Positions 11,218-64,000 are shown, counted from the first letter of the stretch. The stretch is 64,000 nucleotides of DNA from an uncultured delta proteobacterium (GCA_963828805.1 CAWHGS010000019.1:7089-71088); one strand, 5' to 3'. Numbers and translations are program-made. Notes: generated from the letters alone by a model not told the origin.

Positions 11218-11278
11218 TCTCCTTTCATGGTTTGTTTCTGAATAGATTTCGTTTCCAAAAGCAGAGTTCCTTCCATCC

Positions 11279-13092: not shown

Positions 13093-13537
13093 GTTTCTTC
13101 CCCTAAGGCAACCCTCTTCAACATGCTTTGTCAACCGTCAGGTTTTTCACACCTTAGATCATTTCAGTTTTTTTGTCAAGAGGAATGACATTTGTGAATC
13201 TGGAATGATCGTATGTCAGTTTCTCTTAGCGATTATCTTACCGCTTCGAGGATTAGCGTTGAGACGAGTAACCTCTGTTTACAGGATTCCGGATATTCTG
13301 GAAATACACGAGAGAATAGAAAAGCTGGAAATAGGGCCTTGAAAAAGGTCATGAGAAGAATGTAATATGGACTGGGTACTTTGAATCGGATATTCCAGTT
13401 CTTTCTTTTGTTCTTACCCTTGGTCAACCATTGAAGATGCTCATGGCCGGTTGGGTCCAAAAACTCTCGGTGTATGATGTATCCCCATTGGAGGCTCCAA
13501 ATTCGAATATTTCGAGAACTCAAAAGGAGTCAATGAG

Positions 13538-41573: not shown

Positions 41574-41796
41574 CGGTATTTATTCGTTTGGTGGTAACAC
41601 GGGTAGCCTGAGGCGCAAACATTTTTGGACTTTGAATGCATGCCCCATGCTTCCCTTTTTTAGGCACCGTTTTCTTTCATCAACGTCTCTGTCTTGGGGT
41701 CGCGTGGAAAATTTGTCGAAAAAATCTTAATGTCCGTGAGGCGAGAACATGACTGAAAGGCTAACCCCGCTAAGCGAGATCTAACAGAGGATTGAA

Positions 41797-43344: not shown

Positions 43345-43449
43345 ACTTTTTTGCAGACCCGTTGGTTTGATAAGATTCCGAATCCGAAGGCGTGATTCTT
43401 TAATCGATCCGTCAAGGCCTGTAAGAAGGTTTCAAAATAGGAGAATTAA

Positions 43450-44535: not shown

Positions 44536-44664
44536 GTTGTTCCTCAATTCGTTTTCTGGTAAATTGAGAATTGGCTGAGCAGGTGCGCGAAGCAGATGAG
44601 AATGATGTGATGAAAGAATTTGTTTTAGATCCCTTCTCAGGGAAATCAGAAAAGGAGGATGATC

Positions 44665-46234
44665 ATGGATTCGAAATGGATGAAAGGGATGAGGAGATTT
44701 TGAGTCATGGTTTTGCTGTCAGGTCTAACCCTCAGTGGGCCTCCTGAAAGATCGGAAGCCAAGGAGAAACCTTTAGTCGTTGTCCAGCATGTCAGATGTA
44801 ACCTCCTTCGATCCAACCTCCAGCACCTATGGCCCCAATCGGAATTTTTACGCGAACGTCTTCGATGCCCTGACCGTTTGGGACGAAAAGGAACCGACCA
44901 AATTGGCTCCGATGTTGGCGACTTCCTGGAAAACGATTAACGACAAAACCTGGCAATTTCAACTTCGAAAAGGGATCTCTTTTACAAATGGCGAACCCTT
45001 TAACGCCCAGACTGTGAAATGGAACATTGAATGGCTCATCACGCCAGGAAAACACACGGTTGCCGGGAGCTTTTAACACGATTGAACGGGCAGAGGTCGT
45101 GAATGACCATACGGTCAATGTTATCACTGTAAAACCAGATCCCCTTTTGCCTAAACGATTTGCGGCCTATGGAGGCCAGATGACCCCCCCGGAATATATT
45201 AAGAAAGTGGGGAGAGAGGAGTTTGGTCGCAAACCCATCGGGACAGGCCCCTATATCGCTCAAGGAATGGGTGAAGGATGACCATGTCACCCTGATCCGC
45301 AACGAAAAGTATTGGGGAAGGAAACCGGATTTTCAGGAAGTGATTGTCAAACCCGTTCCGGATGGTTCCACCCGACTGAACATGCTCCTTAACGGGCGAG
45401 GCGGATCTCATCGCCGCGGTTCTTCCGGACCAGATTGACAGGATTAAAGAGAGCAAAATCGCTCATGTTGAAACAGGCCTGGGGGCAATGAACTACGAAT
45501 ATGTGATTAAATGCCAGGAAAGGGCCGCTCAGCGACAGAAGAGTCCGCCAGGCCGTGTAATTATGCCGTAAACAAGGAATTGATCCGGAACAAGCTCTGG
45601 AAAGGCTATGGCACTATTATTAACGGTGCTGTATCACGACCGGTGACTTTGGATAGAATCCTGACATGAAACCCTATCCCTACGATCCAGCCAAGGCCAG
45701 GGAGTTGATCAAGGAGGCAGGATACGAGCCGGGCCAAATCACCTTTGACGTGATGTCCCTGGCCAGTGAGAAAGAATTGACGGAAATCATCTGCGCTCAA
45801 CTGAATGAGGTTGGAATCAATGCGAAACCCCGGATCATTGAAGGTGCGGAACGGGCGAAGATCATCAAGGATGCAAGCCTTTGGGAGGATACAGGGGGTG
45901 CGTCTCTTTGATACAGGCCGGCAGTACCCTTTACGATGCCGACGGCATTCCTTTGGAGGACGAGGCACCCTGACGGACTTTATGGAAACTACTGGGAAGG
46001 TTCTCAACCCGGGCAACCCTGGGGCTTTTATGAGATGATGGAGGAAGCCCGGTACAGTTTGGATCAGGAAAAGCGAAAAAAGATTTATTTTAAAGCCAAT
46101 CAAATCGCTAAGGATGAAGCAATCTCTCTTTTCCTCATTCGAGTATACGTTTATTCACGGGGCAAGCAATCGGGTGAACTATAAGATCGACCAGGGCGGT
46201 CTTGGTCTATTTCGGCCGGATCTACAAAAAGTAG
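44665..46234 (+). pseudogene. family-5 (Opp/Dpp/Nik-type) substrate-binding protein, multiply frame-broken
   Basis: AAAGGAGG RBS before the ATG at 44665. An in-frame TGA at 44701 interrupts the signal peptide. Family-5 SBP pieces are spread over at least 8 frame switches (ORFs 44780-45076, 45027-45281, 45223-45438, 45666-45911, 45936-46184). The end coordinate is approximate. Confidence 0.7.
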
Positions 46235-46279
46235 AAAGCCGGGGCATGAATGCCGTAAGAGGGAAATTTATGGGTTGGT

Positions 46280-47203
46280 ATGATTTTCAAGAAGGTGTTT
46301 CACACCGTTCTTGTTGATCTTTGCGGTCTCTACCTTTGTCTTTTGGTTCCTAAGGATTTCGGGAGATCCGGTGGCTCTGTCTGATGCCCATGGATGCGCA
46401 GAAACAGGACATTGAAGCGCTGAGAAAATCGATGGGGCTCGATGATCCCCAGTGCGTCCAGTACGTGCGGTTTATGAAGAACCTCTGCAAGGGGAGAGCT
46501 TAGGGAATTCGTTTCATTACAAACAGCCAGCCCTGGAGTTATTGGTGGAGCGAATGCCGGCGACGTTTCAGCTGGCTCTCAGCGCGATGCTCTTCGCCAT
46601 TCGTGATGGGCATTCCTTTGGGAATCATCTCCGCAGTGAAACAGGGGAAAGCTTTGGACGCGCTCTGTGTTGGATTGGCGACCATTGGCCAGTCGATTCC
46701 GCTCTTCTGGCTCGGTTTGATGTTGATGCTCATCTTTTCTGTTTTTCTCGGGATTCTGCCCACTTCGGGCCGAGGGACACTGAAGCAGTTGATTCTTCCC
46801 ACGATCACCTTGGGTGCTCTCCCCATGGCAGCCATCGTCCGGCTCTTAAGGGCAAGCATGCTGACAGGCCCTTCAGATGGATTATGTGACGGCAGCGAGG
46901 GCAAAAGGTGTCAGGGAGTTTTGGGTCGTGGTGAAACACGCTTTTCGCAACGCGGCGATTCCGGTCGTGACGTTCATCGGTCTGCAGTTTGGAGCGCTCT
47001 TTGGCGGGGCGGTTGTAACCGAGATGATCTTTGCGTGGCCGGGAGTAGGTCGGCTCGTCGTGCTCGCCATTTATAACCGGGACTACCCCCTGGTTCAGGC
47101 AACCGTGATCTTCCTATCAACCATATTTGTCACCGTCAATTTCGTTGTCGACCTCTTGATACGTCTCCTGGATCCGAGGGTGAGGGTCGGAGGAACAAAG
47201 TGA
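46280..47203 (+). pseudogene. OppB/DppB-type ABC permease, multiply frame-broken
   Basis: Pieces read as ...GDPVAL..., LGNSFHYKQPALELLVERMPATFQLALSAMLFAI, MGIPLGIISAVKQGKALD...GILPTSG and MDYVTAARAKGVREFWVVVKHAFRNA...LLDPRVR, in at least 4 frames. Confidence 0.75.
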
Positions 47204-48089
47204 CGGGCAGCATCCTACAGAGAGACCCGAATGTTTTTTAGGGAGTATCCAAACAAATTTGTTTTGGCTTCCGTCATCATGGGAGGAGCCATCTTCTGTG
47301 CCCTTTTCGCTCCCTGGTTGCGCGCCGCATGATCCCGTGAAGGCGGACCTGGGCGCCCGCCTTATTCCGCCGTTCTTCCAGAAGGGAGGAAGCTGGCAAT
47401 CATCCGCTCGGGACGGATCACATCGGCCGGGACGTTCTGAGTCGGATCATTTACGGGGCGAGAATTTCTCTTGCGGTGGGATTCGTGTCGACGTTCGTCG
47501 GATTCCTGATCGGCGGGCTCCTTGGACTCCTTTCAGGCTATTTCGGCGGAAAAACGGACAGTGCTATCACGAAACTGATGGATATCCAGTTGTCCTTTCC
47601 CTTATCCGTATTTGCGATATTTGTGGTGGGTATCATGGGCCCGAATCTCATGAACGTCATCGTCATCTGCGGGATTACGAGATGGGTCATGTTTGCACGG
47701 GTGGTGCGGGGAGAGGTTCTCTCGGTTCGAGAGAAGGAATTTATCGAAGCGGCGAGGGGTATCGGATGCTCCACGCCCCGAATCCTTCTCCGTCATATCT
47801 TTCCCAATATCATTTCAAGCGTCCTTGTTCTGGCCACCCTCAATATTGGAACCATCATCGTTCTCGAATCGACGCTCAGCTTTCTGGGGCTCGGGGTTCA
47901 GCCTCCCACTCCGAGCTGGGGAAACATGCTGAACGATGGAAAGGCCTACATGGTCCAGGCCTGGTGGATTACGGCCCTGCCAGGGTTGGCGATTATGCTC
48001 GTTGTGTTGAGTGCGAACATGATCGGAGACTACCTGAGCGATCTGGTGAACCCGTACGCAAAACAACTGATGACCACATCGAAGAATAA
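47200..48089 (+). pseudogene. OppC/DppC-type ABC permease, frame-broken
   Basis: Pieces read as ...[17 protein letters not shown]..., [22 protein letters not shown] and the long intact stretch at 47476 onward ([16 protein letters not shown]...[21 protein letters not shown]...). Both ends are approximate. Confidence 0.7.
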
Positions 48090-48107
48090 GGCAACGACCG
48101 ACGATTC

Positions 48108-49100
48108 ATGGGAAACGCGCATCGCTTACTCCGGCATCCGAGAATCTGCACGTCCATTTTCTGACGTTGAGAGGAACAGTCAGAGCCGTCAACGGGGTCG
48201 ATCTCACGGTTCGTGGAAGGGGGAGACGATCGGGATAGTGGGGGAGTCCGGCTGCGGAAAGACCATGACCGGTCTTTCCATTCTCCGGTTGATTCCGAGG
48301 CCGGCTGGAAGAATTGCCCGAGGGAGAAATTGAATTTGACGGGAAAAATCTGCTTGACCCTCACGGAACCTGAGATGCGGAAGATCCGGGGAAACCAGAT
48401 TTCGATGATTTTCCAGGATCCCATGACTTCACTTGAATCCCTGTTACAGTGTTGGCAATCAACTGGGAGAGGTCTTTCGGCTCCACCGGAAAGAATTGAG
48501 ACGGGATGAGATCAGGGAGCGGTGTGTGGAACTGCTTGAAACTGGTAGAGATTCCCATGCCTGAACTCCGCCTCCGGCAATACCCCCATGAATTGAGCGG
48601 TGGGATGCGCCAACGGATCATGATCGCTTCAGCGATTGCCTGCCGTCCCCGCATTCTCATTGCCGATGAGCCGACCACCGCTCTCGATGTAACCATTCAG
48701 GCTCAAATCCTCGAGCTGATCCACAAACTGAGAGAGGAGGTGAACACCTCGGTCCTGTTAATCACCCATAATCTCGGGTTAATGGCTGAAAATGCAGACC
48801 GGGTTGTGGTCATGTATGCAGGACGGATTGTCGAACAAGGCCCGGTCGATGAAGTGATTAACCATGCGGTCCATCCCTATACCCAGGGGCTATTCCGCTC
48901 TATTCCCCGGATGACAAAGGACTTCAAAGAAATGAAGCAGCGTCTCATTGAGATTCCCGGAGTCGTTCCCAGCTTGCTCGCCTTACCCCGGGGATGTGCC
49001 TTTGCCCCCCGCTGTTCGAAACGTGGTGCTATCTGCGACCAACAAGAACCAGAAAGGGTTGAAGTTGGACCTCGATCACGATGTCTGGTGTACCTTATGA
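48108..49100 (+). pseudogene. OppD-type ABC ATPase, frame-broken
   Basis: [71 protein letters not shown] and a C-terminal oligopeptide-ATPase extension, spread over at least 4 frames. The stop overlaps the oppF ATG (ATGA at 49097). Confidence 0.75.
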
Positions 49101-50065
49101 CTGGAAATTCCGAACTATTGGAAGTCACCCAGTTAAAGAAATATTTTCCCTACCGCATGGGGGTTTTCAAAAAGGCCCATATCAAAGCGGTGGATGATGT
49201 CTCCTTCGTTTTGAAAGAAGGAGAAACCCTTGGGCTCGTGGGAGAGAGTGGATGCGGAAAATCGACGACGGCTCGAGCCATACAGCGGCTGATTGAGCCT
49301 ACCGGAGGCCGGATCCTTTTTCAGGGGATGGATATTTGCTCTTTGAAGAGACGTGAACTCCGGCAAGTCCGAAAAGAGATGCAGATGATCTATCAGGACC
49401 CCTATGCCTCTCTGGACCCTCGGATGAGAATCGGAACGATCATGGGGGAACCCTTGGAGGTTCATCATGTCGCCCGAGGGAAAGAGAAAGAGGAAGGGTC
49501 CGGGATCTGTTACAGAAAGTGGGGCTGAAATCAGAGCACATGCGGAGTTATCCGAACGAACTCAGCGGCGGTCAAAGACAGCGCGTGGGAATTGCTCGAG
49601 CCCTGGCACTGCATCCCAAATTAATTGTAGCCGACGAACCGGTATCCTCCCTGGATGTGTCCGTTCAAGCCCAGGTGCTGAACCTGCTTAAGGAACTCCA
49701 GACGCAATTCGGTTTATCCTATCTCTTCATCTCTCATGACTTGAGCGTGGTGACCCATGTGAGCGACCGAATTGCCGTCATGTATCTCGGACAGGATTGT
49801 TGAACTGGCAAGGGATGAGGATCTGTATTTTAATCCTCTCCATCCTTATACAAAGGCCCTTTTCTCTGCAGCTCCGATGGTTGACCGTTCTGCCCGACGG
49901 AAACGAATCCTCCTGCGGGGGGAGATCCCATCCATCCTCGCCCCGCCTCGGGGATGTTCATTCCATATGCGATGTGGTGAGAAGAAGAAGGTCTGCGAAA
50001 TGAAAGAACCTGAATTTCGGGACGTCGGACAGGGCCATTTTGTGGCCTGCCATTTATTTGAATAG
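49097..50065 (+). pseudogene. OppF-type ABC ATPase, frame-broken
   Basis: [55 protein letters not shown] and HPYTKALFSAAP...GHFVACHLFE, in 3 frames (breaks near 49500 and 49790). Confidence 0.75.
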
Positions 50066-50095
50066 GTAAAAGTTCACTGAAAAAGGAGGCTGTCC

Positions 50096-51226
50096 ATGAA
50101 GGGAAAACAGGGAAAAGAGATCAAGATCAAAGGGATCGAAACATATCCGGTCTATATTCCATTCAAAAGAGTCCATAAGATCTCCTTGGGAAGGGCGGGA
50201 GGCAGGGAAATCCTTTTGATTAGGATCCATACGGATCAAGGCATCACCGGAGTGGGTGAGGCCATCGCCCATCCTGCTTTTTCCGGAGAAACACTGGGAG
50301 GCCTCTTGGGCGCAATCCAATATCTGGAAGCATCCCTGATTGGAAAGAATTCCCTCAACATCAACGAAACCCTCATGCTGATGGATAAAACATTGTACGG
50401 AAACTACGGAGCTAAAGCCGCCATTGAAATGGCTCTCTTCGATATCATGGGAAAGTATCTCCAGGCCCCCCTGTGTGACCTCCTGGGAGGGAAGCTGCAA
50501 GATCGATTTCCCTTAAGTCGTTCTGCATCCCAGTCGAACCTTGAGGAGGACCTAAAGGATGTGAAACAATACCTGAAAGACGGATACAAAATCATTAAAA
50601 TTAAGGTGGGAGTTCTCTCTGTCGAACAGGATATCGAAAGGGTTAAAGCCATTCGCGAAATGATTGGACCCCCTATCTCACTTCGGGCCGATGCCAATAC
50701 GTCCTGGGATGTTCCCTCTGCGCTCCGATTTATTCAAGGGGTGGACGATTACCGATTAACCTTTATTGAGCAGCCTATTGCACGGGAAGATGTGGACGGC
50801 CTGGCTTATCTGAGAAGCAAGAGCTCTACTCCTATATTAGCTGATGAAGCTGCGGCCACAGAGCATGATATTTTGAAAATCATCGAAAAGAAAGCGGCAG
50901 ACTTCATTAGCGTCAAGGTCATCAAATCGGGTGGTATTGTAAAGTCCCGAAGAATTGCAGCTCTTGCCGAGTGTGCGGGGATTAGATGCTATCTGGGGTC
51001 TCAGATCGAGACCAGTGTGGGAACAGCCGCCAGCCTTCATTTTGTCCTTTCAGCCAATGAATTCCGTTACGGCGGGGAGATTTACGGCCCCATCTTTTTT
51101 GTGGAAGATGTCGTCAAGAAGTCCCTCAAGATCGACCGGGGATATATTTACCCTCCCGACGAACCCGGATTAGGGGTTGAATTGGATATGGACAAAATAA
51201 AAAAGTTCACCTGTAAAGTGTTCTAG
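50096..51226 (+). CDS. enolase-superfamily enzyme, muconate-lactonizing-enzyme subgroup (racemase, epimerase or cycloisomerase)
   Basis: 376-aa intact ORF with AAGGAGG RBS. YKIIKIKVG (KxK), RADANTSW, FIEQP, ILADE and SVKVIKSGG (second Lys). Confidence 0.8.
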   Translation: MKGKQGKEIKIKGIETYPVYIPFKRVHKISLGRAGGREILLIRIHTDQGITGVGEAIAHPAFSGETLGGLLGAIQYLEASLIGKNSLNINETLMLMDKTLYGNYGAKAAIEMALFDIMGKYLQAPLCDLLGGKLQDRFPLSRSASQSNLEEDLKDVKQYLKDGYKIIKIKVGVLSVEQDIERVKAIREMIGPPISLRADANTSWDVPSALRFIQGVDDYRLTFIEQPIAREDVDGLAYLRSKSSTPILADEAAATEHDILKIIEKKAADFISVKVIKSGGIVKSRRIAALAECAGIRCYLGSQIETSVGTAASLHFVLSANEFRYGGEIYGPIFFVEDVVKKSLKIDRGYIYPPDEPGLGVELDMDKIKKFTCKVF

Positions 51227-51313
51227 GGTGGAATCCAAGAAACTGCTCGGATTTCCTGAGAAACCATTGAACCTTCTACCCGACCAAGTAAATTTTATAG
51301 GTAAGGAGCTTCC

Positions 51314-52466
51314 ATGAAAATCACGAATATTAAAAGCTTCCTCTTTCGTCCTTCTTCGGAGAGGGGTTGGATGGGGCAGAATATCCAGAAACACTGGCTT
51401 TTTGTTAAGGTCGAGACAGATGAGGGAATCACGGGCTGGGGAGAATCTTTTACTCTCAAGGATCGCGAGAGAAGTATCGTTCAGCATATTTCCGAGTTGG
51501 TTCCCTACCTCATCGGGAGGGATCCCAATCAGATAAAGTATTTTACTCACATGATTTATGACAAGTTTGCCGAGAGACGGGGAGGGGCCGATCTCTACTG
51601 TGCCATGAGTGGAATTGAACAGGCCCTCTGGGATATCTTAGGCAAACGTCTTCATTCCCCCGTTTACGACCTCCTTGGAGGACCCTGTCATGAGAAAATC
51701 AGGGTCTATGCCAACGGATGGAGCCGCGGTGCCAAAACACCCCAGGAATTTGCCGAAAGGGCTTTAGAAGTTGTAGAGAAGGGCTTTACGGCCATTAAGT
51801 TCTATCCGGCATCTTTTCTGACCTCCAAGAACGAAAGAGAAGTGGAAAAGGCCGCTGTAGAGAACATGAAAGCCGTTCGTGCAGGCCGTCGGTGAAAATA
51901 TCGACATTCTTGTTGATGCCTGGCGGTTGCCAGAACCTGCTCAAGCGATTCGGATGGCTAAGAGGCTTGAGGAATTCAACCTCTTTTGGTATGAAGAGCC
52001 TGTTCCCTCTGAGAACATAGACGTATTGGCAGAGGTCAGGCAGGCCATCCCTGTGCCCATCGTGACGGGTGAATGTCTTTACACGAAATTTGAATTCAGG
52101 GAGGTACTGGAGAAGCGTGCTGCGGATATTCTCAATCCGGATGTTGGAAGCTGTGGAGGCATCCTCGCACTAAAGGAGATTGCCGCGATGGCCGAGCCTT
52201 ATTATGTCAAGGTTTCTCCCCACAACTTCAATAGTACAACGATCGCTCTGGCTGCAACCATTCAGGTCTCTGCGACTTTGCCCAATTTCCTCATTGCCGA
52301 GTATTTCGTCAATTTCGAAGAGGCCGGCAATTCGATCGTGCAGAACCCTTTCAAAGTGGAGGAAGGATATATTAAGCTGCCCGCCCAACCTGGCCTGGGG
52401 CTCGAATTGGATGAGGCGGTATTAAGAAAACACCCCTTTCAGGAGTTTCCACCAAGGGGATGGTAA
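51314..52466 (+). CDS. enolase-superfamily enzyme, mandelate racemase/galactonate dehydratase-like (one frame break near 51881)
   Basis: ORFs 51314-51895 and 51879-52466 join as ...ENMKAVR/QAVGENIDILVDAW... when one G is removed. VKVETDEGITGWGE, WYEEP, IVTGE and SPHN motifs. Confidence 0.75.
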
Positions 52467-52508
52467 GTTTCAACCCGGAACTTGAAAGAAAATGGACCGG
52501 ACAACCGG

Positions 52509-54020
52509 TTAGCGACTGCCTGAAGCCAATTTCCGGGCAGTGTTTAGCAGGAGGTTCTCTGCCCGACGTCTCTTTTCTCCTCTTCTCTCTAGATTCTTTT
52601 CTTCTTTGAAAAGGTCTTCAAGGGCTTCTTCAGCCAGCCGTTTTACTTCGGCGGAGGCAGTCCCTCCGGGCAAACTCCTTCGCTCAACGCATGCCTCCGG
52701 GAGTAAGGCGGATCGAACCTGGTTTTCCTTCAGCTTGATGGGGTGGCCGATAATTTTAATGGCTTCCTTGTCTACGGTTTGTGCAGTGATGTCCTCCGGT
52801 CTTTTCCCTTTTTGAATCATCGAATCGACCACACCCGCTACAATATGATGGGCCGTACGGAAAGAGACTCCTTTTTCTTTGACCATGAGATCAACCAGAT
52901 CCGTGACTGTTGAAAAAAAGGCACCTGAAAACTCCTTCATCCGATCCACTCGAAACCTCAGGCTCTTCATAAGACCGGGCAGGACGGAAACGACAGAAGA
53001 GGTTGTTTCTAACGCTCCCCAAACAGCGGGCATCACCTCACCGGCCACGTCCCGACTGTGAGTGAACGGAACACCCTTCAGGGTTGTTAAAAGAGCCATT
53101 AGGTTTCCAAAAACATGACCTGCTCTGCCACGGCAATGTTCGAGGATGAAGGGATTCTTTTTCTGCGGCATGATGCTGCTGATTTCGGAATACTCATCCC
53201 CCATCTCAATAAATCCGAATTCGTAAGTATTCCAAAGATAGAGGTCTCCAGAGAGACGACTCAGGTCGCAGCTGGTCATGGCAAGGGCAGAAACGATGTC
53301 AAAGGCATAATCCCGTGAGGCCACAGCATCGAGTGCATTGGGGACAATGTTCCTGAACCCGAGAAGAGAAGCGGTTCGATAACGGTCAATCGGGAAAGTG
53401 ACTCCTGCAAGAGCTCCTGTTCCAAGAGGGCAGTTGTCGAGAGATTGAAAGGCATTTTCGAGCCGCCATGCATCACGGCTCAAGGCATAGGCGAAGCCCA
53501 CAAAATAGTGTCCTAGGCTGATGGGCTGTGCGTGTTGGAGATGGGTATATCCGGGCATGACGCTCTTGGCGTAGGCCTGAGCCAATTGCAGGATGATTTT
53601 TCTAAGCTCGATGAACTTTTTGAGAAGCTGGTCCAAGGGATCTCTCAGAGCCATGCGCTGACCCGTTGCGATGAGGTCATTACGACTTCTTCCCGTGTGC
53701 ATCCTGCCTCCAATATCCTCTCCAATTTGATCGATGATATAGCGTTCGAGATCGAGGTATAACTCCCCGCCGATGCCCGGTTTAACGCGAGCCGGATCCC
53801 CTTTTTCAAGGTCCAGTAACACACTTAAGATAACCCTGGCATCTTTAGGCTCCAGCAGACCTCTCTCCTGAAGCATGATGACGTGAGCGATATTGATGTG
53901 GTTGAAGGGTTTAAATAATCGATGATGGTTGGTATACCAGATCGGAAGGGTCATCCATTCTACAACTTCTTTTGCTAACCCTTTCTTTAATCGTCCGCGG
54001 ACTAAAGCTTCTTTTCCCAT
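52509..54020 (-). CDS. argininosuccinate-lyase-family C-N lyase, divergent paralog 2
   Basis: ORF 52509-54371. Likely start at 54020 (MGKEALVRGRLKKGLAKEVVEW, after AAGGAAG). PGYTHLQHAQPISLGHY, EISSIMPQKKNP and a charged helical C-terminal tail. Confidence 0.8.
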   Translation of the reverse strand: MGKEALVRGRLKKGLAKEVVEWMTLPIWYTNHHRLFKPFNHINIAHVIMLQERGLLEPKDARVILSVLLDLEKGDPARVKPGIGGELYLDLERYIIDQIGEDIGGRMHTGRSRNDLIATGQRMALRDPLDQLLKKFIELRKIILQLAQAYAKSVMPGYTHLQHAQPISLGHYFVGFAYALSRDAWRLENAFQSLDNCPLGTGALAGVTFPIDRYRTASLLGFRNIVPNALDAVASRDYAFDIVSALAMTSCDLSRLSGDLYLWNTYEFGFIEMGDEYSEISSIMPQKKNPFILEHCRGRAGHVFGNLMALLTTLKGVPFTHSRDVAGEVMPAVWGALETTSSVVSVLPGLMKSLRFRVDRMKEFSGAFFSTVTDLVDLMVKEKGVSFRTAHHIVAGVVDSMIQKGKRPEDITAQTVDKEAIKIIGHPIKLKENQVRSALLPEACVERRSLPGGTASAEVKRLAEEALEDLFKEEKNLERRGEKRRRAENLLLNTARKLASGSR

Positions 54021-54258
54021 GGCAGCTTCCTTTCCCAATAGATTGACCTTGCTAGATCCCACCACCCCTCTCAAGAATCTATGCGGTGGCGAGATCTTAT
54101 CCATGAATCCAATATTTTTTGATTTCTTGCCAGAGGAAACTCCAACTAAAAAAATCAAGATCGGCGTTGAAAATGAGCTCGTAATGACCCGATTCTCAGG
54201 GATGCGATCGAGAGGTTGAGGAGAACCTTGATCAAGAAAGGGACGAAGAAATACTTTA

Positions 54259-54993
54259 TTACGGTTGACCTGCCATGAGATCCGGTCCTTGGTCCCCCCC
54301 GATTCCAAGTTGTTCTTCTTTGGTTCGGTCATCCCCGGCGAGCTCCTCCGGCAGGCCCTCGTAGACCACACGCCCCTTGGTCATGATGTAGACCTTGTCG
54401 GCAAGTTCCAGGGCCAGATGCAGGTTCTGCTCTACCAGCAAAATAGCCATGCCTTCGCTGCGCAGCCGCCGGATGGTTTCGGCGACCTGGCGCACCAGCA
54501 TGGGCGCCAAACCTTCCGAGGGCTCATCGAGAAGGAGTAGCCTGGGATGGGTCATCAGCGCGCGACCGATGGCCAGCATCTGCTGCTCTCCGCCGCTCAA
54601 CTGGCTTCCACGGTTCCGGTGTCGCGCCGCCAGGTTGGGGAAGAGGGAGTAGACCCGGCTAAGCGTCCAATCGCCCTGATGGGAGGGGTCGACCCCGATC
54701 ATCAGGTTCTCTTCCGCGGTCAATGTCGGGAAGATCAGCCTGCCCTGGGGCACGAGGCCGACTCCCATGCGGGTGATCAGGTGCGTAGGCGTTGCGGTGA
54801 TGTCGACGCCGGCGAGCACGATCGACCCGGAGGCGGCCGGCGTTAGCCCCATGATGGAGCGCACCAACGTTGTCTTTCCCACGCCGTTGCGCCCCAGGAG
54901 GGCAACGAGGGAACGATCCGGCACGTCCAGCGAGACGCCCTGCAGGACATAACTGCTGTCGTAATAGGTTTCGACATCGCGGATTTCCAGCAT
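54259..54993 (-). CDS. livF: ABC ATP-binding protein, LivF type (GC-rich paralogous operon)
   Basis: 244 aa with GRNGVGKTT, LSGGEQQMLAIG and LLLLDEPSEGL. Confidence 0.85.
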   Translation of the reverse strand: MLEIRDVETYYDSSYVLQGVSLDVPDRSLVALLGRNGVGKTTLVRSIMGLTPAASGSIVLAGVDITATPTHLITRMGVGLVPQGRLIFPTLTAEENLMIGVDPSHQGDWTLSRVYSLFPNLAARHRNRGSQLSGGEQQMLAIGRALMTHPRLLLLDEPSEGLAPMLVRQVAETIRRLRSEGMAILLVEQNLHLALELADKVYIMTKGRVVYEGLPEELAGDDRTKEEQLGIGGDQGPDLMAGQP

Positions 54994-54996
54994 CGC

Positions 54997-55746
54997 TCAG
55001 GGCCCCCCGAGATAGATTTCTTGGACAAGCCGATTCGCGCGGATCTCGTCCAGCGGACCTTCGGCGATCATTTGTCCCTGACTGAGAACCGTCACGGTTT
55101 CGGCCAGCGCAAACGCCACATTCATATCGTGTTCGATGAATAGGAGGGTGATCTTCCGGGGCAGGGTGCGGAGCAGCGCCACGATCCGCGATACCTCGGC
55201 ACGGGCCAGGCCGGCGGTCGGCTCGTCCAGCAAGAGCAGACTGGGGCGGCTCGCCAGGGCCAACCCGATCTCGAGCTGACGCTGTTCCCCGTAGGCCAAC
55301 GAGCCGACCGGCACCGCCTCCCGTCCTGCAAGCCCTACCTGGTCCAGGATGTGATGCGCCTCCTCGACCAGCGCTCCAATCCGTTCGACGACGCGGCAGG
55401 GAATGTATTTCGTCCGTCGGATCCCCTGTACGGCCAGAATGGCGTTCTCAAGCGTGGTGAGCCTCGGGAAGAGGGTCGTCACCTGGAATGTCCGGGCGAT
55501 TCCCATCGCGGCGCGTCGGTACGGCGGGTAGTTCGTGATGTCCTGGCCGCGGAACGAGACGGTGCCGCTGCTCGGCGCGATCTCTCCCGAGAGGATCTTG
55601 AAAAGGGTGGTTTTTCCGGCGCCGTTCGGACCCAGAATCGCCTGTCGGATGCCCTCGCGAACATTCAGGTTGATTCCTGCAAGGGCCTCGAGTCCCCCAT
55701 ACCTCTTGCCCACGCCGGATACTTGCAGACAGAGTTGACCGCTCAT
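54997..55746 (-). CDS. livG: ABC ATP-binding protein, LivG type (GC-rich operon)
   Basis: 249 aa with GPNGAGKTT, ARTFQ, LAYGEQRQLEIG and LLLLDEPTAGL. Confidence 0.85.
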   Translation of the reverse strand: MSGQLCLQVSGVGKRYGGLEALAGINLNVREGIRQAILGPNGAGKTTLFKILSGEIAPSSGTVSFRGQDITNYPPYRRAAMGIARTFQVTTLFPRLTTLENAILAVQGIRRTKYIPCRVVERIGALVEEAHHILDQVGLAGREAVPVGSLAYGEQRQLEIGLALASRPSLLLLDEPTAGLARAEVSRIVALLRTLPRKITLLFIEHDMNVAFALAETVTVLSQGQMIAEGPLDEIRANRLVQEIYLGGP

Positions 55747-55841
55747 CTGGGTCCTCCGACCGGAACGTGCCCCGTCCCGCTCTTTGCGGGATAGGCGGGG
55801 TCAAGGGGCACAATGTGAAATGAAATCACCTTACCGGGAAG

Positions 55842-55860
55842 CCCCGGCCTGTGGCCGGGG
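55842..55860 (-). promoter_or_regulatory. intercistronic GC stem-loop after SBP gene (GC-rich operon)
   Basis: CCCCGGCC TGT GGCCGGGG, a perfect 8-bp stem in the 184-bp gap between the SBP stop and the livG start. Confidence 0.5.
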
Positions 55861-55930
55861 AGCTTCGCTTGCGGGCGCAGCCGCAGATCGTTGTCGGCGC
55901 ATGGCCGGGAGCGTCCCGGCGAATGCGAGA

Positions 55931-57212
55931 TCACTGACAGTTTGTGCAGGGAGGATAATCCCGCGAGTAAACCGGCTTATTCAAGAATACCGATGGGTCA
56001 TACGTCCAGAACTGTGACACGTTGGGTAGCGTAGCGATGACCGTGTTCTGGAGTTCCCCTTTGACCCGGTCCACCCGACGGATGTACTCATTCTCGACGA
56101 CCCCGCCGTACGGATCGAAGCTGATCGGACCTCGCGGAGCGTCGGAGATCTTGACGGCTCGAATGGCATCGACGAGTTCCTTTCCCCCTCCGGGTTTCCC
56201 GCCGGTATTCTCCAACGCTTTGGCGATGACCTGACCCGTTACATAGCCCGCTTCAGCCCGGTAGCCCGGTGCATCCTTGTACTCCTCCTTGAACTTCTTA
56301 ACGAAGGCCTGGGCCTCGGGTGTCTGGAGTACCGCGCTCCAGTGGAGCACTGTGAACAGGCCCGACAGCCTCATCCCCCATGGACTTCAAGACCGCTTCA
56401 TCGGTGACGGCGGCCAATCCGTAGAGGGGGTACTTGTCCTTCAATCCAAACTCGTCCCATTGCAGCAGGAAACGAACGGCGTTACCCCCGGACTGCGCTA
56501 CGACGACGGCATCCACATCCTTCTTGATCTGAGGAAAATAGGGCGCGAAATCCGACGTGGTCTGGGGCGTCCAGATCTTCTGGACAACCTTGCCGCCCGC
56601 ATCTTCGAAGGCCCGCTGGAAACCGCCGACGTTCTCCCACCCGAAGGCGTAGTCGTAGGCGATGATGGCAACGCGCCGCTTGCCCTGGTCGTAGGCCCAC
56701 TTGCCCAACGCGTGCGCCGGCTGGCTGGAGGTCCATCCGGTGCGGATGATCCAGGGCGTGCGCTTGCGTTGAGTGATATCATCGCCGGAGACGACCGGGA
56801 ACAGGCAGGGCGCCTTTGCCCGATCGATGTAGTCTCGGACGGCATAGCCTTCGTTCGCGAGGGTCGGGCCTACGAGAAGGTCAGCCTTATCCTGCTCGAC
56901 CAGCTTGCGTGCTTTCGCCAGCGCGGTATTGGGATCGCCCGAGGTATCCTCCACGATCACCGTGATCTTTCGACCGCCTGCCGTGTAGTTGATTCCCTTG
57001 AGGAAAAGCGTCAGACCACTGAGTGTATCCTTGCCGCTTGAGGCAAAGTTGCCGGTCAGCGCGCCGTAAAACCCGAGCTTGAGGGGCGGCAGACTGCCGA
57101 CGGGGGACGGTGTGCTGGCGGCAGCAGCAACCTGCGGTGGCGCGGCCATTAGACTCGGACCTGCGACGAGGACAACGACCAGAAGCGTGAACAGGGCGTG
57201 TCTTGGTTTCAT
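55931..57212 (-). CDS. LivK-type substrate-binding protein with C-terminal CxxC (one frame break near 56360)
   Basis: ORFs 56298-57626 and 55931-56374 join as ...SMGDEAVG/LFTVLHWSAVLQTPEAQAFVKKF... when one base is removed. Start MKPRHALFTLLVVVLVAG at 57212 (ATGA overlap with the livM stop). It ends in YSRDYPPCTNCQ. Confidence 0.8.
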
Positions 57213-58237
57213 GATTTGCCTCCTGACTGGATGTGAGTTGCCGGCGTTCTCTCCACGTTCTTTCCTTGGGATCGGTCTGATCGCTGGGGAGCGCCGGAGT
57301 TGATTCGAACCATGAGACGGCTCATCATTCCCATGAGGCCGCCCGGCAGGAACATCACGGTGGCGATGTACACGACACCCAGCACCATCATCCATCGCTG
57401 GGTGACCGAACTCATGATCTGACGCATGACGACAATGACGGCTGCCCCGAGACATGGGCCAATGAGCGTGCCCGGCCCGCCGAGGATGACCATCAAGATC
57501 GCGGTCGCCGAGTTGCTGATGGCCAGGGCTTCCGGACTGACGAAACCGGTCAGGTTGGCATTGAGGATTCCTGCCAGTCCCCCGAAGAAGGCGGAGGTGA
57601 GGTACGCCAGGTACTTGTGCAGCCATGTGTGATAGCCGAGCACCTGCATGCGGATTTCCCGCTCACGGATGCCGCGCCAGCTCAGTCCGAAGGGCGAACG
57701 CACGAGCAGGCTGAGCGCCGCCACCGCGATGGCGAACACGACGAAGACGAAGTAGTAATAGGCAAGGGAGCTTTCGAGGCGTCCGACCAGGGGAAGTTCG
57801 GGGCGCATCGGGATCGATAGGCCGTTATCACCGCCTGTTACCGTAGACCACCGATAGGCCAATCCCCAGAGGGCCTGTCCGAGTGCCAGGGAAATCATGA
57901 TGAACGGCAACCCGGAGGTGCGCAGGGCGATGGCTCCGAAGATCATTGCGACCAGCAGGACCACGGCCAGTGCGAGCAGCCCGCTCCCCCAGAAGGACTG
58001 GCCCAGCCGCAGAGCGCTGATGACGGCGGCATAGGCCCCCACCCCGAAAAAGGCGGCGTGACCGAACGAGGTGTACCCCAGGTAGCCGATCAGAACGTCC
58101 AAACTCATCGCGAAGATGGCGAAGATCAGGACGGACGTGAGAACAAAGACGGGATAACTGGGCAGGAAGATCGGGAGCACCCCGAGCGCCAGGATGCTCA
58201 CGATCACCGTCAACACTTGAGCCCTTCGCCACGCCAT
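57209..58237 (-). CDS. livM: ABC permease, LivM type (GC-rich operon)
   Basis: 342-aa polytopic ORF, collinear with the paralog at 11279-12235. Confidence 0.85.
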   Translation of the reverse strand: MAWRRAQVLTVIVSILALGVLPIFLPSYPVFVLTSVLIFAIFAMSLDVLIGYLGYTSFGHAAFFGVGAYAAVISALRLGQSFWGSGLLALAVVLLVAMIFGAIALRTSGLPFIMISLALGQALWGLAYRWSTVTGGDNGLSIPMRPELPLVGRLESSLAYYYFVFVVFAIAVAALSLLVRSPFGLSWRGIREREIRMQVLGYHTWLHKYLAYLTSAFFGGLAGILNANLTGFVSPEALAISNSATAILMVILGGPGTLIGPCLGAAVIVVMRQIMSSVTQRWMMVLGVVYIATVMFLPGGLMGMMSRLMVRINSGAPQRSDRSQGKNVERTPATHIQSGGKS

Positions 58238-58240
58238 CGG

Positions 58241-59101
58241 TTAGCTCCTTGGAATCAGGCCGCTGGGGCGCACGGCGAGAATGATGATCATCGGCACGAA
58301 CAGGGTGAAATAGGAGAGGTCGGGGAACAGGGCCCGGCCGTAATTATCGAGGAGGCCGAGAATCAGGCTGCCGACGAGGGCCCCGTTGATCGACCCGATG
58401 CCGCCGACAATGACGACCACGAGCGTGAGGGGCAGTAGCTCCCAGTCGAGCCCCGGATACACGCTCAGGAACGGGGCCCCCATGACACCGGCGAAGCCGG
58501 CCAGGAGCGACCCGAACCCGAAGGTCAACATGAAGACCTTCTCAATGTTGATTCCCATTGCGCGCGCCATCTCCTGGTTGTCGACCGCGGCCCGAATGAT
58601 GGCGCCCCAGCGCGTTCGTCCCAGAATGATGTTGAGGACTACCGCAATGAGCAGGCCGCTGGTGATGATGAAGAGCCGGTAGGCAGGAAAGCGCATGATC
58701 CACAGGTCGACGGATCTCGCCAGCAGCGCCGGAGGGCGGATGGTCACCGGGTCACCGTGCCAGAGGACGAGAGACACATCGGCGATTATAAGAGCGATGC
58801 CGATGGAGACGAGCACCTGGAGATGCGTGCGACCCAGGAGCCTTCGCATAAACATGCGCTCGGTGACGAATCCGATCCCGAGACCCGTAAGCGTGCCCGC
58901 CACCAGCGCTAGGGGAAAGTTGCCCGTGGTTCGCACGACCGAATAGCCGATGTAGGAGGCGAGAAGGTAGAAGGCCCCGTGCGCCAGGTTGGCGATCTTC
59001 ATCATCCCGAGAATGAGGGAGAGGCCGGCCGACAGGAGAAAGAGCAACATGCCGTAGGCAACACCGTTGAGACTTTGAATGATCCAGAATTGCACTGCCA
59101 C
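58241..59101 (-). CDS. livH: ABC permease, LivH type (GC-rich operon)
   Basis: 286-aa polytopic ORF. The N-terminus MAVQFWIIQSLNGVAYG parallels the paralog. Confidence 0.85.
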   Translation of the reverse strand: MAVQFWIIQSLNGVAYGMLLFLLSAGLSLILGMMKIANLAHGAFYLLASYIGYSVVRTTGNFPLALVAGTLTGLGIGFVTERMFMRRLLGRTHLQVLVSIGIALIIADVSLVLWHGDPVTIRPPALLARSVDLWIMRFPAYRLFIITSGLLIAVVLNIILGRTRWGAIIRAAVDNQEMARAMGINIEKVFMLTFGFGSLLAGFAGVMGAPFLSVYPGLDWELLPLTLVVVIVGGIGSINGALVGSLILGLLDNYGRALFPDLSYFTLFVPMIIILAVRPSGLIPRS

Positions 59102-59455
59102 CTCATCGCCGGGGCAGACTACAGAATGAGCATGATCCGACCCGTCCCCTCTCCCGTGCGGACGAACTCCAGTGCGTCATATAACAAAAAACGGAAAAGT
59201 CTGTCAAGCAGAAGCAAGCTGACGAACCTGCAATTCAGACACTGGACTTCAGACCTCAGACACCGGACTATTTTATATGGGGAATTGACCCTTGAAGCGT
59301 CCTTATCCCTTTTTCTCTTGAGGCTTTACACTCTATTTTCATCTCTCGTCTGATGTCTGAAGTCCCTGCCTGCGGTAGGCAGGTAGGGCCTCTTACTGAC
59401 TGAATCACAGAAGCCGAACACCTCACGCAATTATGCACCGGGCCTTGCAGGCAGC

Positions 59456-60847
59456 TTACAGAGGCAAATCCCTTACATTGGCCACATGATCAAGGTTTTC
59501 AATCATATCCGCCAGAGTTCGTATGCGGCCTTGAGGGGCGGACCCTTCAGCTAAAGAGTAAAATTTGTCACGCAATTCTTTGTGGCTCAAAGGATTCTCC
59601 GGATCACCCTTTGGAAAGTTCACCGTCTTCATCAAGGTTGTTCCAGTCTCCAGGCTCAAATGAATCCGACATCCCCATTCGCCGGGGTATTTCTCATCAA
59701 ATTCCTTTGTCGCGCGAATTTCAACAGGCGGGGCCTTTGACTGAAGTTCTTTATCTTCAAGTCGCTTCATGGAGAATTGTTTTGCCAGCGCTTTTCCATC
59801 CGTCAGAGCAACCGCCACTCCGTAGCGCATGCTGAATTGTGCTGCATTGGGTGAGGTCGGCCATTCTTCACTTCCGCACTGTTTTTTTGCGACGCCATAA
59901 GTCTCTATCTCTACGCCTCTGACCTGATCCGTCTTTAGGCCATGTTCCGCTTTTAGCGATAAGACCGCATCGATTGCAGCATGCATGCTTCGGCAACAGG
60001 CATAGGGTTTGATACTGATCCCTTCAATAAGGTATTCCTCACCCCACTCCTTGGTCACAGCATCGAAATCGTAATGATGACTTGTGGCAGGGAAAAGTCC
60101 TCCGTCGGAAGCTTCTAAAATGTGTGATGGACCCGTCAGGCCTGCCTGGGCCAGCTCGGCGGAGAGAACGCCATGATGGCTCGCCATACCCGCATGAAAA
60201 CGCTTGTTTGCCGCCCCATCGGCCAAAAAAGCCCAGAGGCCGCTGGACTGGGTACCTGCAAGCCCCAGGGCAGAGGTCATCTCATCTTCGGTGAGTCCCA
60301 GAAGAACTCCGGCAGAAGCAGCGGCACCGAATACTCCCAGCGTAGCCGTTGAGTGCCATCCGCGCGCACGATGTTCAGACACATTAATTGCCGCCCCCAG
60401 GCGGTGTGCCACTTCATAACCGATGACGACCGCGCGCAGCACTTCTAGGCCCGTCGCCCCCAGGTTTTCTCCAACGCCTAGGGTTGCAGGGATGATCACT
60501 GTTCCTGCATGAATCTTTGAGCTCCTGTGAACATCGTCCAGCTCCAGGGTGTGCGTCAGAATCCCATTGAAAAGGACGGAAACGAGTAAGGGCATCCTGG
60601 CATTTTGTCCCCAGACCAAAGGTGCGATACGGCCTGCCCCGGGTATGTCGCATCCGCCGGATAGTTCATTCAAGCGGCGAAAAATGTTTCGGTTCATCTC
60701 ATCCTGAGCCCCTCCCAGACCGCATCCGATCGCATCCAGAACACATTTCTTTGCTTTCACCATTGCGGAGGTTGGAATCTTGCTTGAGGGCGTATTGGAA
60801 ATGAAACGGGCAAGCGTTCTGGTCGGAGTTTCATTTTGTAAACTCAT
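59456..60847 (-). CDS. MmgE/PrpD family protein (2-methylcitrate dehydratase / iminodisuccinate epimerase family)
   Basis: 463-aa intact ORF. The N-terminus LARFISNT...KKCVLDAIGCGLGG and overall length are typical of the family. Confidence 0.8.
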   Translation of the reverse strand: MSLQNETPTRTLARFISNTPSSKIPTSAMVKAKKCVLDAIGCGLGGAQDEMNRNIFRRLNELSGGCDIPGAGRIAPLVWGQNARMPLLVSVLFNGILTHTLELDDVHRSSKIHAGTVIIPATLGVGENLGATGLEVLRAVVIGYEVAHRLGAAINVSEHRARGWHSTATLGVFGAAASAGVLLGLTEDEMTSALGLAGTQSSGLWAFLADGAANKRFHAGMASHHGVLSAELAQAGLTGPSHILEASDGGLFPATSHHYDFDAVTKEWGEEYLIEGISIKPYACCRSMHAAIDAVLSLKAEHGLKTDQVRGVEIETYGVAKKQCGSEEWPTSPNAAQFSMRYGVAVALTDGKALAKQFSMKRLEDKELQSKAPPVEIRATKEFDEKYPGEWGCRIHLSLETGTTLMKTVNFPKGDPENPLSHKELRDKFYSLAEGSAPQGRIRTLADMIENLDHVANVRDLPL

Positions 60848-62183: not shown

Positions 62184-62422
62184 ATGATTACCTCCCTAGA
62201 GGGGAAAGTTACATCTAAAATACATACATCAGATAGAAATGACAATATTGTCAAGCAGTTTGAAATCTTTGCTCACTCCAAGTTTTTTCCTTGCCCACCT
62301 CCACTTTTCATTTTACAAGAAGTCCAAGGTGCAAGAGGCCTGATCGGGCCTCAGATGCAGCTTCAAATCCCATGGAAGGAAAAACTGGGGGTGGGCAAGA
62401 GGTTTCTTCATGTTTTTTCATA

Positions 62423-62451
62423 TTGACAGGAAGAACAGATGGGACTAATGT
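62423..62451 (+). promoter_or_regulatory. candidate sigma70-type promoter of rpoD
   Basis: TTGACA at 62423-62428, a 17-nt spacer, then TAATGT at 62446-62451. It lies about 25 nt upstream of the GGGAG RBS and the ATG at 62477. Confidence 0.5.
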
Positions 62452-62476
62452 GAGAGGAGTCATTTCAAGGGAGCAT

Positions 62477-64000
62477 ATGAAAAAAAAGCGCTTTCCAAAA
62501 CATTCAATGGTTTCCAGTCTGCCGAGTCTTTCGACCCCGCTCTCTTTCCCGGACGATGTGAGCGGGCATGGATTGGACATCGATACGATTGGCGAACTCC
62601 GGGGGTTAAATCTGGAGAACATGACTCTTCTGCAGGAGGAAGAGCACGAGCCCATCGAATACGAAGAGATGCCGTTCCCAAAGGTGATAGACCCGGTAGG
62701 TATTTACTTGAAAGAAATAGGGGTCTTCCCATTACTGACCCGCGAAGGGGAAATAGAGATTGCCAGGAAGATCGAGACCGGAAAGAATGAGATCTTAAAT
62801 GGTTTGATCAACTGCCCAATGGCTGTCAGCGAGGTGGTTAAACTCGGGAAGGATCTCCATGAAGGGAGGCTAAAGCTCGACGATTTAACCAATCAGGCCG
62901 ACAATGAAGAGATGACGGTTAAAGAGAAAGAAAACCGGAGAAGAGCTGTTCTCAGCTTAATCGATAAGATTCGTAAAGGGATGAACAGGATTCAACTCCT
63001 TCGGAGGAAGCTGAGACATGAAAGGAATAAATCCCTCAAAACGAAGATCCGGGAGGAAATTGGGAACAAACAAGCTGAGATATTCGATGCTTTTAAACAG
63101 ATCGATCTGAAGGAGAGACATGTCAAGAAAATCGTACAGAAACTTAGGGAGTGGAGCCTCCGGATCGAAAAGTCTCGGCTGAAGCAGAAACGACGTGGCA
63201 AGGCATCACCCATCTCCCGCTCAAAAAAGGGGAAGTCCTTGACGAAAGAAGGTGGCCTATCTCCAAATCAGGTCAAAGAAGCTTTAAAGATGATAGAAAG
63301 GGGGGAGACCAGAGTTGGAGAAGCAAAGAATGAATTTGTGAGGGCCAACTTGAGGTTGGTCATTTCCATTGCCCTGAAACACCAGAATCGGGGACTTCCA
63401 TTGCTCGATTTGATCCAGGAGGGCAACATCGGTTTGATAAGATCGATCGATAAGTTCGACTATAGAAAAGGGTACAAGTTTGCGACCTATGCGACCTGGT
63501 GGATCCGGCAGGGTATGACACGGGCTATCGCTGAACAATCCAGGACCATTGACCTTCCGATGCATGTAACCGAATTCATTAATAAACTGAACCTGATCTC
63601 CCGGCAACTGGTTAAGGAGATGGGGAGGGAGTCCACGCTTGAAGAAATTGCCAAAAGGATGGGAGTATCGCCGGAGAAGATACGGAAGGTTTTGAAACAT
63701 TGCCGAAAGACCCGTTTCTCTTGAAACGCCCATGGGTGACGAAGGGGAGAGCCGGTTAGCGGATTTTATCGAGGACAAGGGAGCGGTTTCCCCTCACGAA
63801 GCAGCAGTAGGCTCTCATTTGGCCAAGTGGATTCGAAAAGTTCTCTCAACGCTTAACAAGAGGGAAGAGAAGATCCTGAGGATGCGGTTCGGGGTCGGGT
63901 TAACCAGGGAGTATACTTTAGAAGAGGTGGGACAGGAGTTCGATATCACCCGGGAAAGAATACGTCAGCTCGAGGCCAAGGCCTTAAAGAAATTGAAAAA
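62477..64000 (+). CDS. rpoD: primary-type RNA polymerase sigma-70 factor (one frame break near 63698; truncated by window end)
   Basis: Region 1.2 is [25 protein letters not shown] and region 2 is [36 protein letters not shown]. After one extra C is removed at about 63698, the read continues [17 protein letters not shown]...[16 protein letters not shown]. Confidence 0.85.

Follow-up and report, generated by a model that had tools for sequence, protein, structure and literature searches.

ATP-binding cassette (ABC) importers with two permeases, two ATPases and a binding protein include the LivJ/LivK-LivHMGF system of Escherichia coli and the Urt urea importers, which share their superfamily and subunit set with the transporter genes described here. 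Benzoate and 4-hydroxybenzoate are ligands of RPA0668 and RPA0985, HAAT binding proteins of Rhodopseudomonas palustris (PMC3223731). The aromatic-acid importers of this organism, such as HbaEFGHI with the binding protein RPA0668/HbaE and the system of RPA0985, have the same five-component architecture as our cassette, namely two BPD_transp_2 permeases, a Peripla_BP_6 binding protein, and ATPases of the LivG and LivF types. The cassette is located in a 64,000-nt stretch of DNA from an uncultured delta proteobacterium (GCA_963828805.1 CAWHGS010000019.1:7089-71088), hereafter called the window, in which all positions are counted from the first letter. We propose that the segment at ~54270-59223 is a laterally acquired five-gene importer cassette of the HAAT family (TC 3.A.1.4) in a Syntrophaceae-like genome of ~52% GC, a reading to which we assign a probability of about 0.88.

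Classical horizontally acquired genomic islets are known by their atypical composition and its later amelioration, a concept of Lawrence and Ochman. The cassette resembles them in its deviating composition with sharp borders, in its patchy distribution, in its closer relatives within a compositionally matching foreign pool, and in its GC-to-AT drift. It differs from them in that its borders carry no integrase or transposase gene, tRNA target, direct repeats or insertion sequence (IS) elements, in that it takes along a truncated donor gene and a promoter-like stretch, and in that two or more genomic contexts have the cassette with the same ends. Read in this way, it is an ordinary but unusually well-documented gene transfer that reveals no new kind of system. 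It represents a clean, fully traceable transfer at the level of an operon into an uncultured syntrophic lineage. Its record comprises sequence from donor-like contigs, the two breakpoints, the remnant of a donor gene, a junction with a promoter-like stretch, amelioration that is partial, later entry of a host repeat, and selection.

Composition and borders of the cassette

The genome (G000) is a metagenome-assembled genome (MAG) of 2.5 Mb in 58 contigs that is 64% complete, and the window corresponds to C19:7089-71088. Its RpoB has homologs at 87-89% identity that carry the labels Syntrophaceae, Desulfobacterota or Thermodesulfobacteriota, and we regard the host as Syntrophaceae-like (Thermodesulfobacteriota) with a GC content of roughly 52%.

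A first-pass annotation of the window had pointed to a GC-rich block at 54260-59160 with a clutter of open reading frames (ORFs) in all six frames, and both features were confirmed. The GC content in 1-kb intervals is 0.58-0.63 across 54001-59000 versus 0.46-0.54 on either side, and in 200-nt intervals it steps at ~54200-54400 and ~59000-59300. The block at 54259-59101 has a GC content of 62.0%, compared to 51.7% for the genome. Among 4,500 genome intervals of 4.8 kb (mean 0.518, standard deviation 0.023) it has a z-score of ~4.4, and only C45:1-7300 has a higher GC content. The GC content at third codon positions (GC3) is 0.74-0.82 in the five cassette genes, 0.52-0.56 in the flanking genes and 0.606 on average in the genome (standard deviation 0.064). 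The first codon positions (GC1) are also GC-rich, with values of ~0.68 in livG, livF and the binding-protein ORF and 0.61 in livH, as compared to 0.56-0.60 in the two flanking genes. The tetranucleotide distance of the block from the genome mean has a z-score of 6.3, and the only intervals that are as deviant (4 of 2,262) are all located on C45. The profiles of both flanks are ordinary, and overlapping spurious ORFs are dense within the block. The parts of the cassette are as follows:

54270..59223, minus strand: whole cassette, probably acquired, ~4.95 kb, 61.8% GC; contains a promoter-like stretch, a donor-gene relic and five transporter genes
59178..59207, minus strand: promoter-like AT-rich stretch; TTGACA at 59207-59202, 17-nt spacer, TTATAT at 59184-59179 or TATATG at 59183-59178
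59119..59175, minus strand: relic of the 3' end of a Zn-dependent alcohol dehydrogenase (ADH) gene; 18 codons, ALEFVRTGEGTGRIMLIL, and a stop codon
58241..59095, minus strand: LivH-like permease; 284 aa from GTG at 59095, alternative GTG at 59101; PF02653
57209..58237, minus strand: LivM-like permease; 342 aa; PF02653
55931..57212, minus strand: periplasmic binding protein, Peripla_BP_6; 426 aa in other strains, two ORFs in the window
56357..56366, minus strand: frameshift site, GTCGGGCCTG
55758..55873: repeat A, ~116 nt, hairpin-rich and dispersed in the host family; within the spacer between the binding-protein gene and livG
54997..55746, minus strand: LivG-like ATPase; 249 aa; PF00005 and PF12399 (BCA_ABC_TP_C)
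54259..54993, minus strand: LivF-like ATPase; 244 aa; the donor stop is lost and the frame extends 8 codons into recipient sequence

The 5' limit of the cassette is at 59216-59223, where the alignment starts among the window and contigs L010 and L012, whose three upstream sequences differ. The 3' limit is at ~54270-54279, where contigs L011 and L111 depart from the window. The first-pass annotation had placed the GC switch at the livF stop and the livH start; the true ends lie slightly outside the coding limits. A perfect TTGACA is located 10-15 nt inside the alignable point at the 5' end and is followed by 17 nt, TTATAT and the ADH relic. This promoter-like stretch is common to recipient copies in differing contexts (the window, L010, L012, L111 and L112), while the donor-like contigs lack it and have ADH coding sequence at this position.

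Donor-like contigs and the probable direction of transfer

The comparison contigs were taken from ENA, JGI and Logan, and include short-read and long-read assemblies with both MEGAHIT "k141" and "contig_N" naming. Beyond the clade with at least 90% identity, relatives of the LivM-like permease form a continuous series at 75-87% identity, and their contigs, where examined, have a GC content of 61-68%. Contigs L093-L098 have 65-68% GC over their full length, and their operon is 80-86% identical to the block at the nucleotide level. The gene order in the donor cluster is amidohydrolase, creatinase-N/M24, short-chain dehydrogenase/reductase, 2-hydroxyacid dehydrogenase, Zn-dependent ADH, the five transporter genes, and an HMGL/LeuA-like gene, with GntR and MmgE/PrpD genes nearby. 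The tetranucleotide profile of the block is close to that of the donor-like contigs outside the transporter genes (r=0.90-0.94), compared to a correlation of 0.50 with its own genome.

Both breakpoints can be located by comparison with these contigs. At the 5' end, positions 59119-59175 align without gaps to the end of an intact gene for a 341-aa protein with ADH_N and ADH_zinc_N domains that precedes livH in L095-L098; an ADH_zinc_N gene is adjacent to livH also in L094. The end of the ADH in L095 reads ALESVRMGERPGRMVLIP before the stop codon, while the relic in the window reads ALEFVRTGEGTGRIMLIL. The homology to the donor ADH stops just upstream of the relic, at ~59176-59183. At the other end, the donor livF product terminates in LGIGGERV, with a stop codon that overlaps the start of the HMGL-like gene, and the homology stops at this overlap. 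The recipient livF instead continues for 8 codons past the lost donor stop and reads LGIGGDQGPDLMAGQP before its own stop codon. Since the truncated gene end can be derived only from the full gene, the transfer is polarized from the high-GC lineage to the low-GC host.

The substitution pattern points in the same direction. Among the fixed differences, defined as positions with one base in all of three donor-like copies and a different one in all of four recipient copies, 64 are from GC to AT and 15 from AT to GC (43 versus 4 at third positions), and GC3 is 0.71-0.84 in the recipients versus 0.82-0.91 in the donor-like copies. We infer both the direction of the transfer and a single origin of the capture. 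The cassette would have been cut from a larger catabolic gene cluster of a bacterium with 65-68% GC, with one breakpoint 19 codons from the end of the Zn-dependent ADH gene that lies upstream and the other where the HMGL/LeuA-like gene begins downstream. The short AT-rich stretch at the 5' end of the recipient copies may serve as a promoter. The cassette would then have been inherited in this species-level clade beside an MmgE/PrpD gene, with partial drift to a lower GC content, invasion by a host repeat and continuing purifying selection.

A lipobox and a long Ala/Pro linker in the binding protein of L093 are suggestive of a monoderm source. A LivM homolog with 74% identity is labelled Sulfotelmatobacter. 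In L094 (11079-14148), there are two tandem binding-protein genes of 419 aa each, with products 82% and 79% identical to the recipient-type protein of L103.

Junctions and distribution

Further features surrounding the cassette, and a paralogous operon elsewhere in the window, are:

59228..59413: repeat B, ~185 nt, a host repeat similar to miniature inverted-repeat transposable elements; separates the cassette from the stop codon of PrpD; inverted arms of 18 nt each span 59244-59261 and 59348-59365
54199..54269: local low-GC flank, common to L010, L103 and L104
41614..54198: lyase locus, a strain-variable segment of 12,585 bp; absent from L103 and L104
8380..13134, minus strand: paralogous HAAT operon 1, 49% GC; identical gene order and C-terminal motif of the binding protein

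An exact or near-exact copy of the permease is present on many other contigs in ENA, JGI and Logan. The transition from MmgE/PrpD to the cassette, with the same GC step, occurs in eight other assemblies (L009, L010, L011, L100 and L103-L106), and L010, L103 and L104 share 57-70 nt of low-GC sequence past the livF stop. The cassettes of other strains are 94.7-99% identical to the window, in parallel with the identity that each strain shows in its flanking genes, and the synonymous divergence (dS) of the cassette ranks the strains as that of PrpD does, with L010 above L011. The junction between livF and the lyase locus is spanned in no other assembly, and the 157-kb L010 contig stops 3 nt short of it. 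No record of the exact lyase protein was found, and in a metagenome scan the lyase gene was covered by contigs at its far end only. As these searches yielded no spanning contig, the adjacency of livF and the lyase locus is known only from this assembly.

No match to the block above 64% identity was found in 40 related genomes, other than repeat-sized stretches. A scan of species-representative genomes for LivM gave only matches with 31-47% identity, the best of which was 47% at the protein level. Homologs of the flanking PrpD fall from 97% to 61% identity. Those with names are 36-45% identical, are labelled for the most part as Synergistota, Bacillota and Desulfobacterales, and include some labelled as archaeal, a profile unlike that of the cassette.

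Later history of the cassette

Repeat A has copies at C21:59585-59700 and C33:47460-47552, and there are many copies with 80-90% identity in related genomes of the same family and class. It is present in L009-L011 and L103 but absent from the donor-like contigs L093-L095, in which the spacer is ~26-100 nt. Repeat A entered the cassette after the transfer. Repeat B has at least 14 copies in G000, at 74-97% identity, with copies on C1, C11, C16, C17, C21, C23, C24, C29, C35, C42-C45 and C57. It is present at the cassette in L009, L011 and L103-L106, while L010 contains another sequence instead.

The ratio of nonsynonymous to synonymous substitution rates (dN/dS) is 0.04-0.16 among the recipient copies, in comparisons with enough substitutions. 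Such low ratios are consistent with purifying selection, which indicates that the cassette encodes a functional importer.

The cassettes in L111 and L112, which are 84% identical to the window, also begin with the TTGACA...TTATAT element and the ADH relic. Since this capture scar is common to copies that have diverged by up to 16% (dS 0.43-0.68), there was probably one old capture, followed by spread or relocation. In L012, a 93% identical cassette is located behind a 49% GC cluster of GntR/C_GCAxxG, cyclase, acyl-CoA dehydrogenase and CoA-ligase genes. The flanking genes in L012 have no orthologs in G000, and this contig may represent either the same lineage in rearranged form or another host. 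In L111 (1996-2452), most of the binding-protein gene is deleted, so that the part for the signal peptide runs directly into a short remnant of the gene's interior. A different repeat, containing CCCTGAGCTTGTCGAAGGG, is located in the spacer of L111 and again downstream of livF.

The same 5' and 3' ends recur beside PrpD, beside the GntR/C_GCAxxG cluster in L012, and in the 16%-diverged L111 and L112. The 3' border exists in three states, followed by nothing, by a 1.4-kb aldose-epimerase gene, or by the 12.6-kb opine-like catabolic segment. It is conceivable, but rather unlikely, that the cassette is a discrete mobile unit that carries a promoter and no recombinase, with an insertion hotspot at its 3' border. 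If so, it would represent an unrecognized way of moving transporter operons between the genomes of anaerobes.

Alternative explanations

Several observations weigh against a transfer from a high-GC lineage. A nucleotide tree of livH-livM with distant outgroups shows the donor-like and recipient copies as a polytomy, and since its base is unresolved, the direction rests on the gene relic, the composition and the substitution bias rather than on a rooted phylogeny. For genes neighbouring the donor-like operon, protein clusters at 90% identity or more carry conflicting labels, Coriobacteriia versus Chloroflexota. The TTGACA...TTATAT element was not called in a consensus promoter scan, and its -10 hexamer is imperfect. 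The native ATP-synthase genes in an island with 59-60% GC (C39:21500-29100) have GC3 values of 0.74-0.76, and with native genes at ~0.75, GC3 alone is insufficient proof of a foreign origin. An empty site was not found, and PrpD has no ortholog with more than 43% identity in 54 genomes of the family. Finally, the cassette ends carry no mobility gene or tRNA and share no direct or inverted repeat with each other, and no recombinase was identified among the Pfam-annotated neighbours within ~5 kb; in L009 and L010, the nearest are found at the far contig ends, at a distance of ~8 kb or more. Because the ends are not marked by any of these, they do not identify a mechanism of insertion.

These points must be set against the alternatives. 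The first-pass annotation had considered a chimeric join as an alternative to lateral acquisition, in which assembly or binning would have wrongly joined a block from a co-occurring high-GC organism to this genome. Such an artefact might be expected in an incomplete MAG with pervasive single-base errors, a multi-copy repeat adjoins the right junction, the donor-like L094 belongs to the ENA assembly series that also includes L009 and L010, and the contigs of L009 and L010 end at or near the left edge (at 54284 and 54202, respectively). However, two precise mis-joins would be required, the right junction recurs in eight other assemblies that differ in sample and assembler, and three also agree with the window in the sequence past livF. 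In addition, the block contains a host-family repeat that is absent from the donor-like copies, its divergence between strains tracks that of the flanks, and it is 14-20% different from every high-GC contig found. We consider this alternative largely refuted and very improbable, and the compositional outlier in this MAG to represent biology rather than contamination. A native origin, with a high GC content caused by expression-linked codon bias or local mutation bias, would agree with the GC3 values of the ATP-synthase island on C39, but is hardly credible given that GC1 is also raised, that the tetranucleotide profile fits the donor flanks, that high-GC contigs contain a full gene to which the non-coding ADH relic is homologous, and that family relatives hold nothing above 64% nucleotide identity. 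It could also be argued that the cassette originated in low-GC Syntrophaceae-like hosts, from which high-GC organisms obtained it, in view of the unresolved base of the tree and the divergence of up to 16% among the recipient-type copies. This reverse direction is very unlikely too, since a truncated end of 19 codons cannot be ancestral to the full 341-aa ADH, the composition of the cassette equals that of the other genes in the donor contigs and not that of the recipients, and the GC-to-AT substitution bias is on the recipient side. Lateral acquisition, as proposed in the first-pass annotation, is thus strongly supported by the high-GC donor-like contigs, the donor-gene relic, the GC-to-AT bias and many independent assemblies.

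The acquired cassette could still be a decaying pseudo-operon in this strain, since the binding-protein gene is split into two ORFs. It spans 1282 nt in the window, that is 1281 nt plus one extra base at 56357-56366, and the diverged L111 has truly lost most of this gene. At the site of the extra base, the window reads GTCGGGCCTG, while L099, L103 and L104 read GTCGGGCTG, and L009, L010 and L011 read GTGGGCCTG. The latter two sequences both encode V-G-L, and the window contains a 10-nt hybrid of both, so that the extra base is found exactly where two co-existing synonymous alleles differ. The gene is intact, encoding 426 aa, in all six of these assemblies. The frameshift is the sole indel in the cassette coding sequences relative to short-read contigs with 98-99% identity, which together cover all five genes, other conserved genes of G000 also contain frame errors, and the dN/dS ratios are low. 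As judged from these comparisons, the frameshift is an artefact of assembly and consensus calling, and genuine decay of the operon in this strain is improbable. This frameshift represents a consensus error of a mixed-strain assembly, and so, probably, do the frame breaks in the Opp genes described below.

Transporter family and candidate substrate

The first-pass annotation described the block as a complete LivHMKGF importer. The five genes and the HAAT architecture stand: both permeases match BPD_transp_2 (PF02653), with UrtB/LivH and UrtC/LivM as their best NCBIfam matches; there are separate LivG- and LivF-type ATPases, with UrtD/LivG and UrtE/LivF as best matches; and the binding protein matches Peripla_BP_6 (PF13458, 245.8 bits versus a cut-off of 31.7) and has a signal peptide with the hydrophobic N-terminus MKPRHALFTLLVVVLVAGPSLMA. 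However, none of the proteins reaches a Liv or Urt equivalog cut-off in NCBIfam. The scores are far below the cut-offs for the Liv proteins represented by E. coli (LivH 66 versus 379, LivM 108.5 versus 366, LivJ/K-type binding protein 31 versus 477, LivG 181 versus 362, LivF 211 versus 441) and also below those for the Urt proteins (UrtA 56.7 versus 492.75, UrtB 152.6 versus 250.3, UrtC 131 versus 296.2, UrtD 212.8 versus 304.1, UrtE 250.1 versus 285.8). The Liv label therefore denotes only the HAAT architecture, and its connotation of branched-chain amino acids is here corrected, since the substrate is not of this kind by any curated test.

As had been noted, the order of the permease, permease, binding-protein, ATPase and ATPase genes is the same as in the AT-richer operon at 8380-13134, and the binding proteins of both operons end in YSRDYPPCxxC. 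The protein identities between the two operons are only 41-52% (47% for the LivH-like permease), which identifies them as old paralogs rather than as the result of a recent duplication.

The cassette differs from the aromatic-acid importers of R. palustris in its gene order (H-M-SBP-G-F, where SBP is the substrate-binding protein), in the YSRDYPPCxxC tail of the binding protein, and in its donor context, which consists of amidohydrolase, creatinase-like and dehydrogenase genes rather than genes of the benzoyl-CoA pathway. The nearest sequences to the binding protein in PDB are 4zpj (E-value 1e-62) and 4ey3 (4.5e-55), followed by 4evq, 4evs and 4f06 (1e-35 to 1e-36). We take 4ey3, 4evq, 4evs and 4f06 to be binding proteins for benzoate derivatives from R. 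palustris. As for the recipient contexts, L103 has HcrCAB-like and major facilitator superfamily (MFS) genes, and L012 has genes for CoA-ligase and acyl-CoA dehydrogenase. Because of these presumed identities, the ligands of RPA0668 and RPA0985, and the recipient contexts taken together, our best guess is a carboxylate of the aromatic or hydroxy-acid type, with low confidence in any particular substrate. The donor context would fit an amide or amino-acid derivative equally well. By analogy with the standard type I ABC cycle of the family, the Peripla_BP_6 protein would capture a small carboxylate or amide-type solute in the periplasm and dock on the heterodimer of the LivH- and LivM-like permeases, with the LivG- and LivF-like ATPases driving the import.

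The strain-variable lyase segment

The segment at 41614-54198 contains two argininosuccinate-lyase-like genes, an octopine/nopaline-dehydrogenase-like gene, an Opp-type importer and two enolases of the MR/MLE type, and looks like an opine-type catabolic module. In L103 and L104, position 54199 is joined directly to 41613, at the end of the MFS gene beside the HcrCAB-like operon, and in L011, a 1.4-kb aldose-epimerase gene is located in place of the 12.6-kb segment. Since the breakpoints are adjacent bases in other strains, we read this as a true strain polymorphism rather than a mis-join, with a clean insertion of 12,585 bp in the window. The earlier description of the importer as embedded in the lyase locus thus holds for this assembly but not for the strains that lack the segment, and the cassette predates the segment and exists without it.

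It had also been suggested that the cassette functionally replaces a broken Opp importer. The independent JGI contig L116 (1-5631) is 94% identical to the window at 47263-52907, with 28 gap positions in 5.6 kb. This contig has complete ORFs for OppD, OppF and the enolases, and its oppC can be read without interruption up to the contig end, whereas the frames are broken in the window. The frame breaks are most likely assembly errors, and the Opp system is probably intact. Since the cassette occurs without the segment in L103, L104 and L011, and in an unrelated context in L012, and since the genes are intact in L116, the replacement idea is not supported.

Other observations

Searches for tRNAs and against Rfam gave no matches at 53500-60000, and a 75-nt multi-copy match considered as a candidate tRNA is a dispersed repeat instead. 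The rpoD gene (62291-64000) is broken in the window and called as two or three fragments in L009, L010 and L011. The most deviant region of the genome is C45:1-6500 (L126), located at a contig end, with a GC content of 63-64% that peaks at 0.64 in 4.8-kb intervals. Every frame in this region is shattered, one ORF has a SpoIIE/PP2C-like motif, and an Rfam search gave no match; it may represent a second foreign segment or a contig end that is of poor quality or chimeric. The highly expressed genes of the G000 organism are GC3-rich, as seen in the ATP-synthase island on C39.

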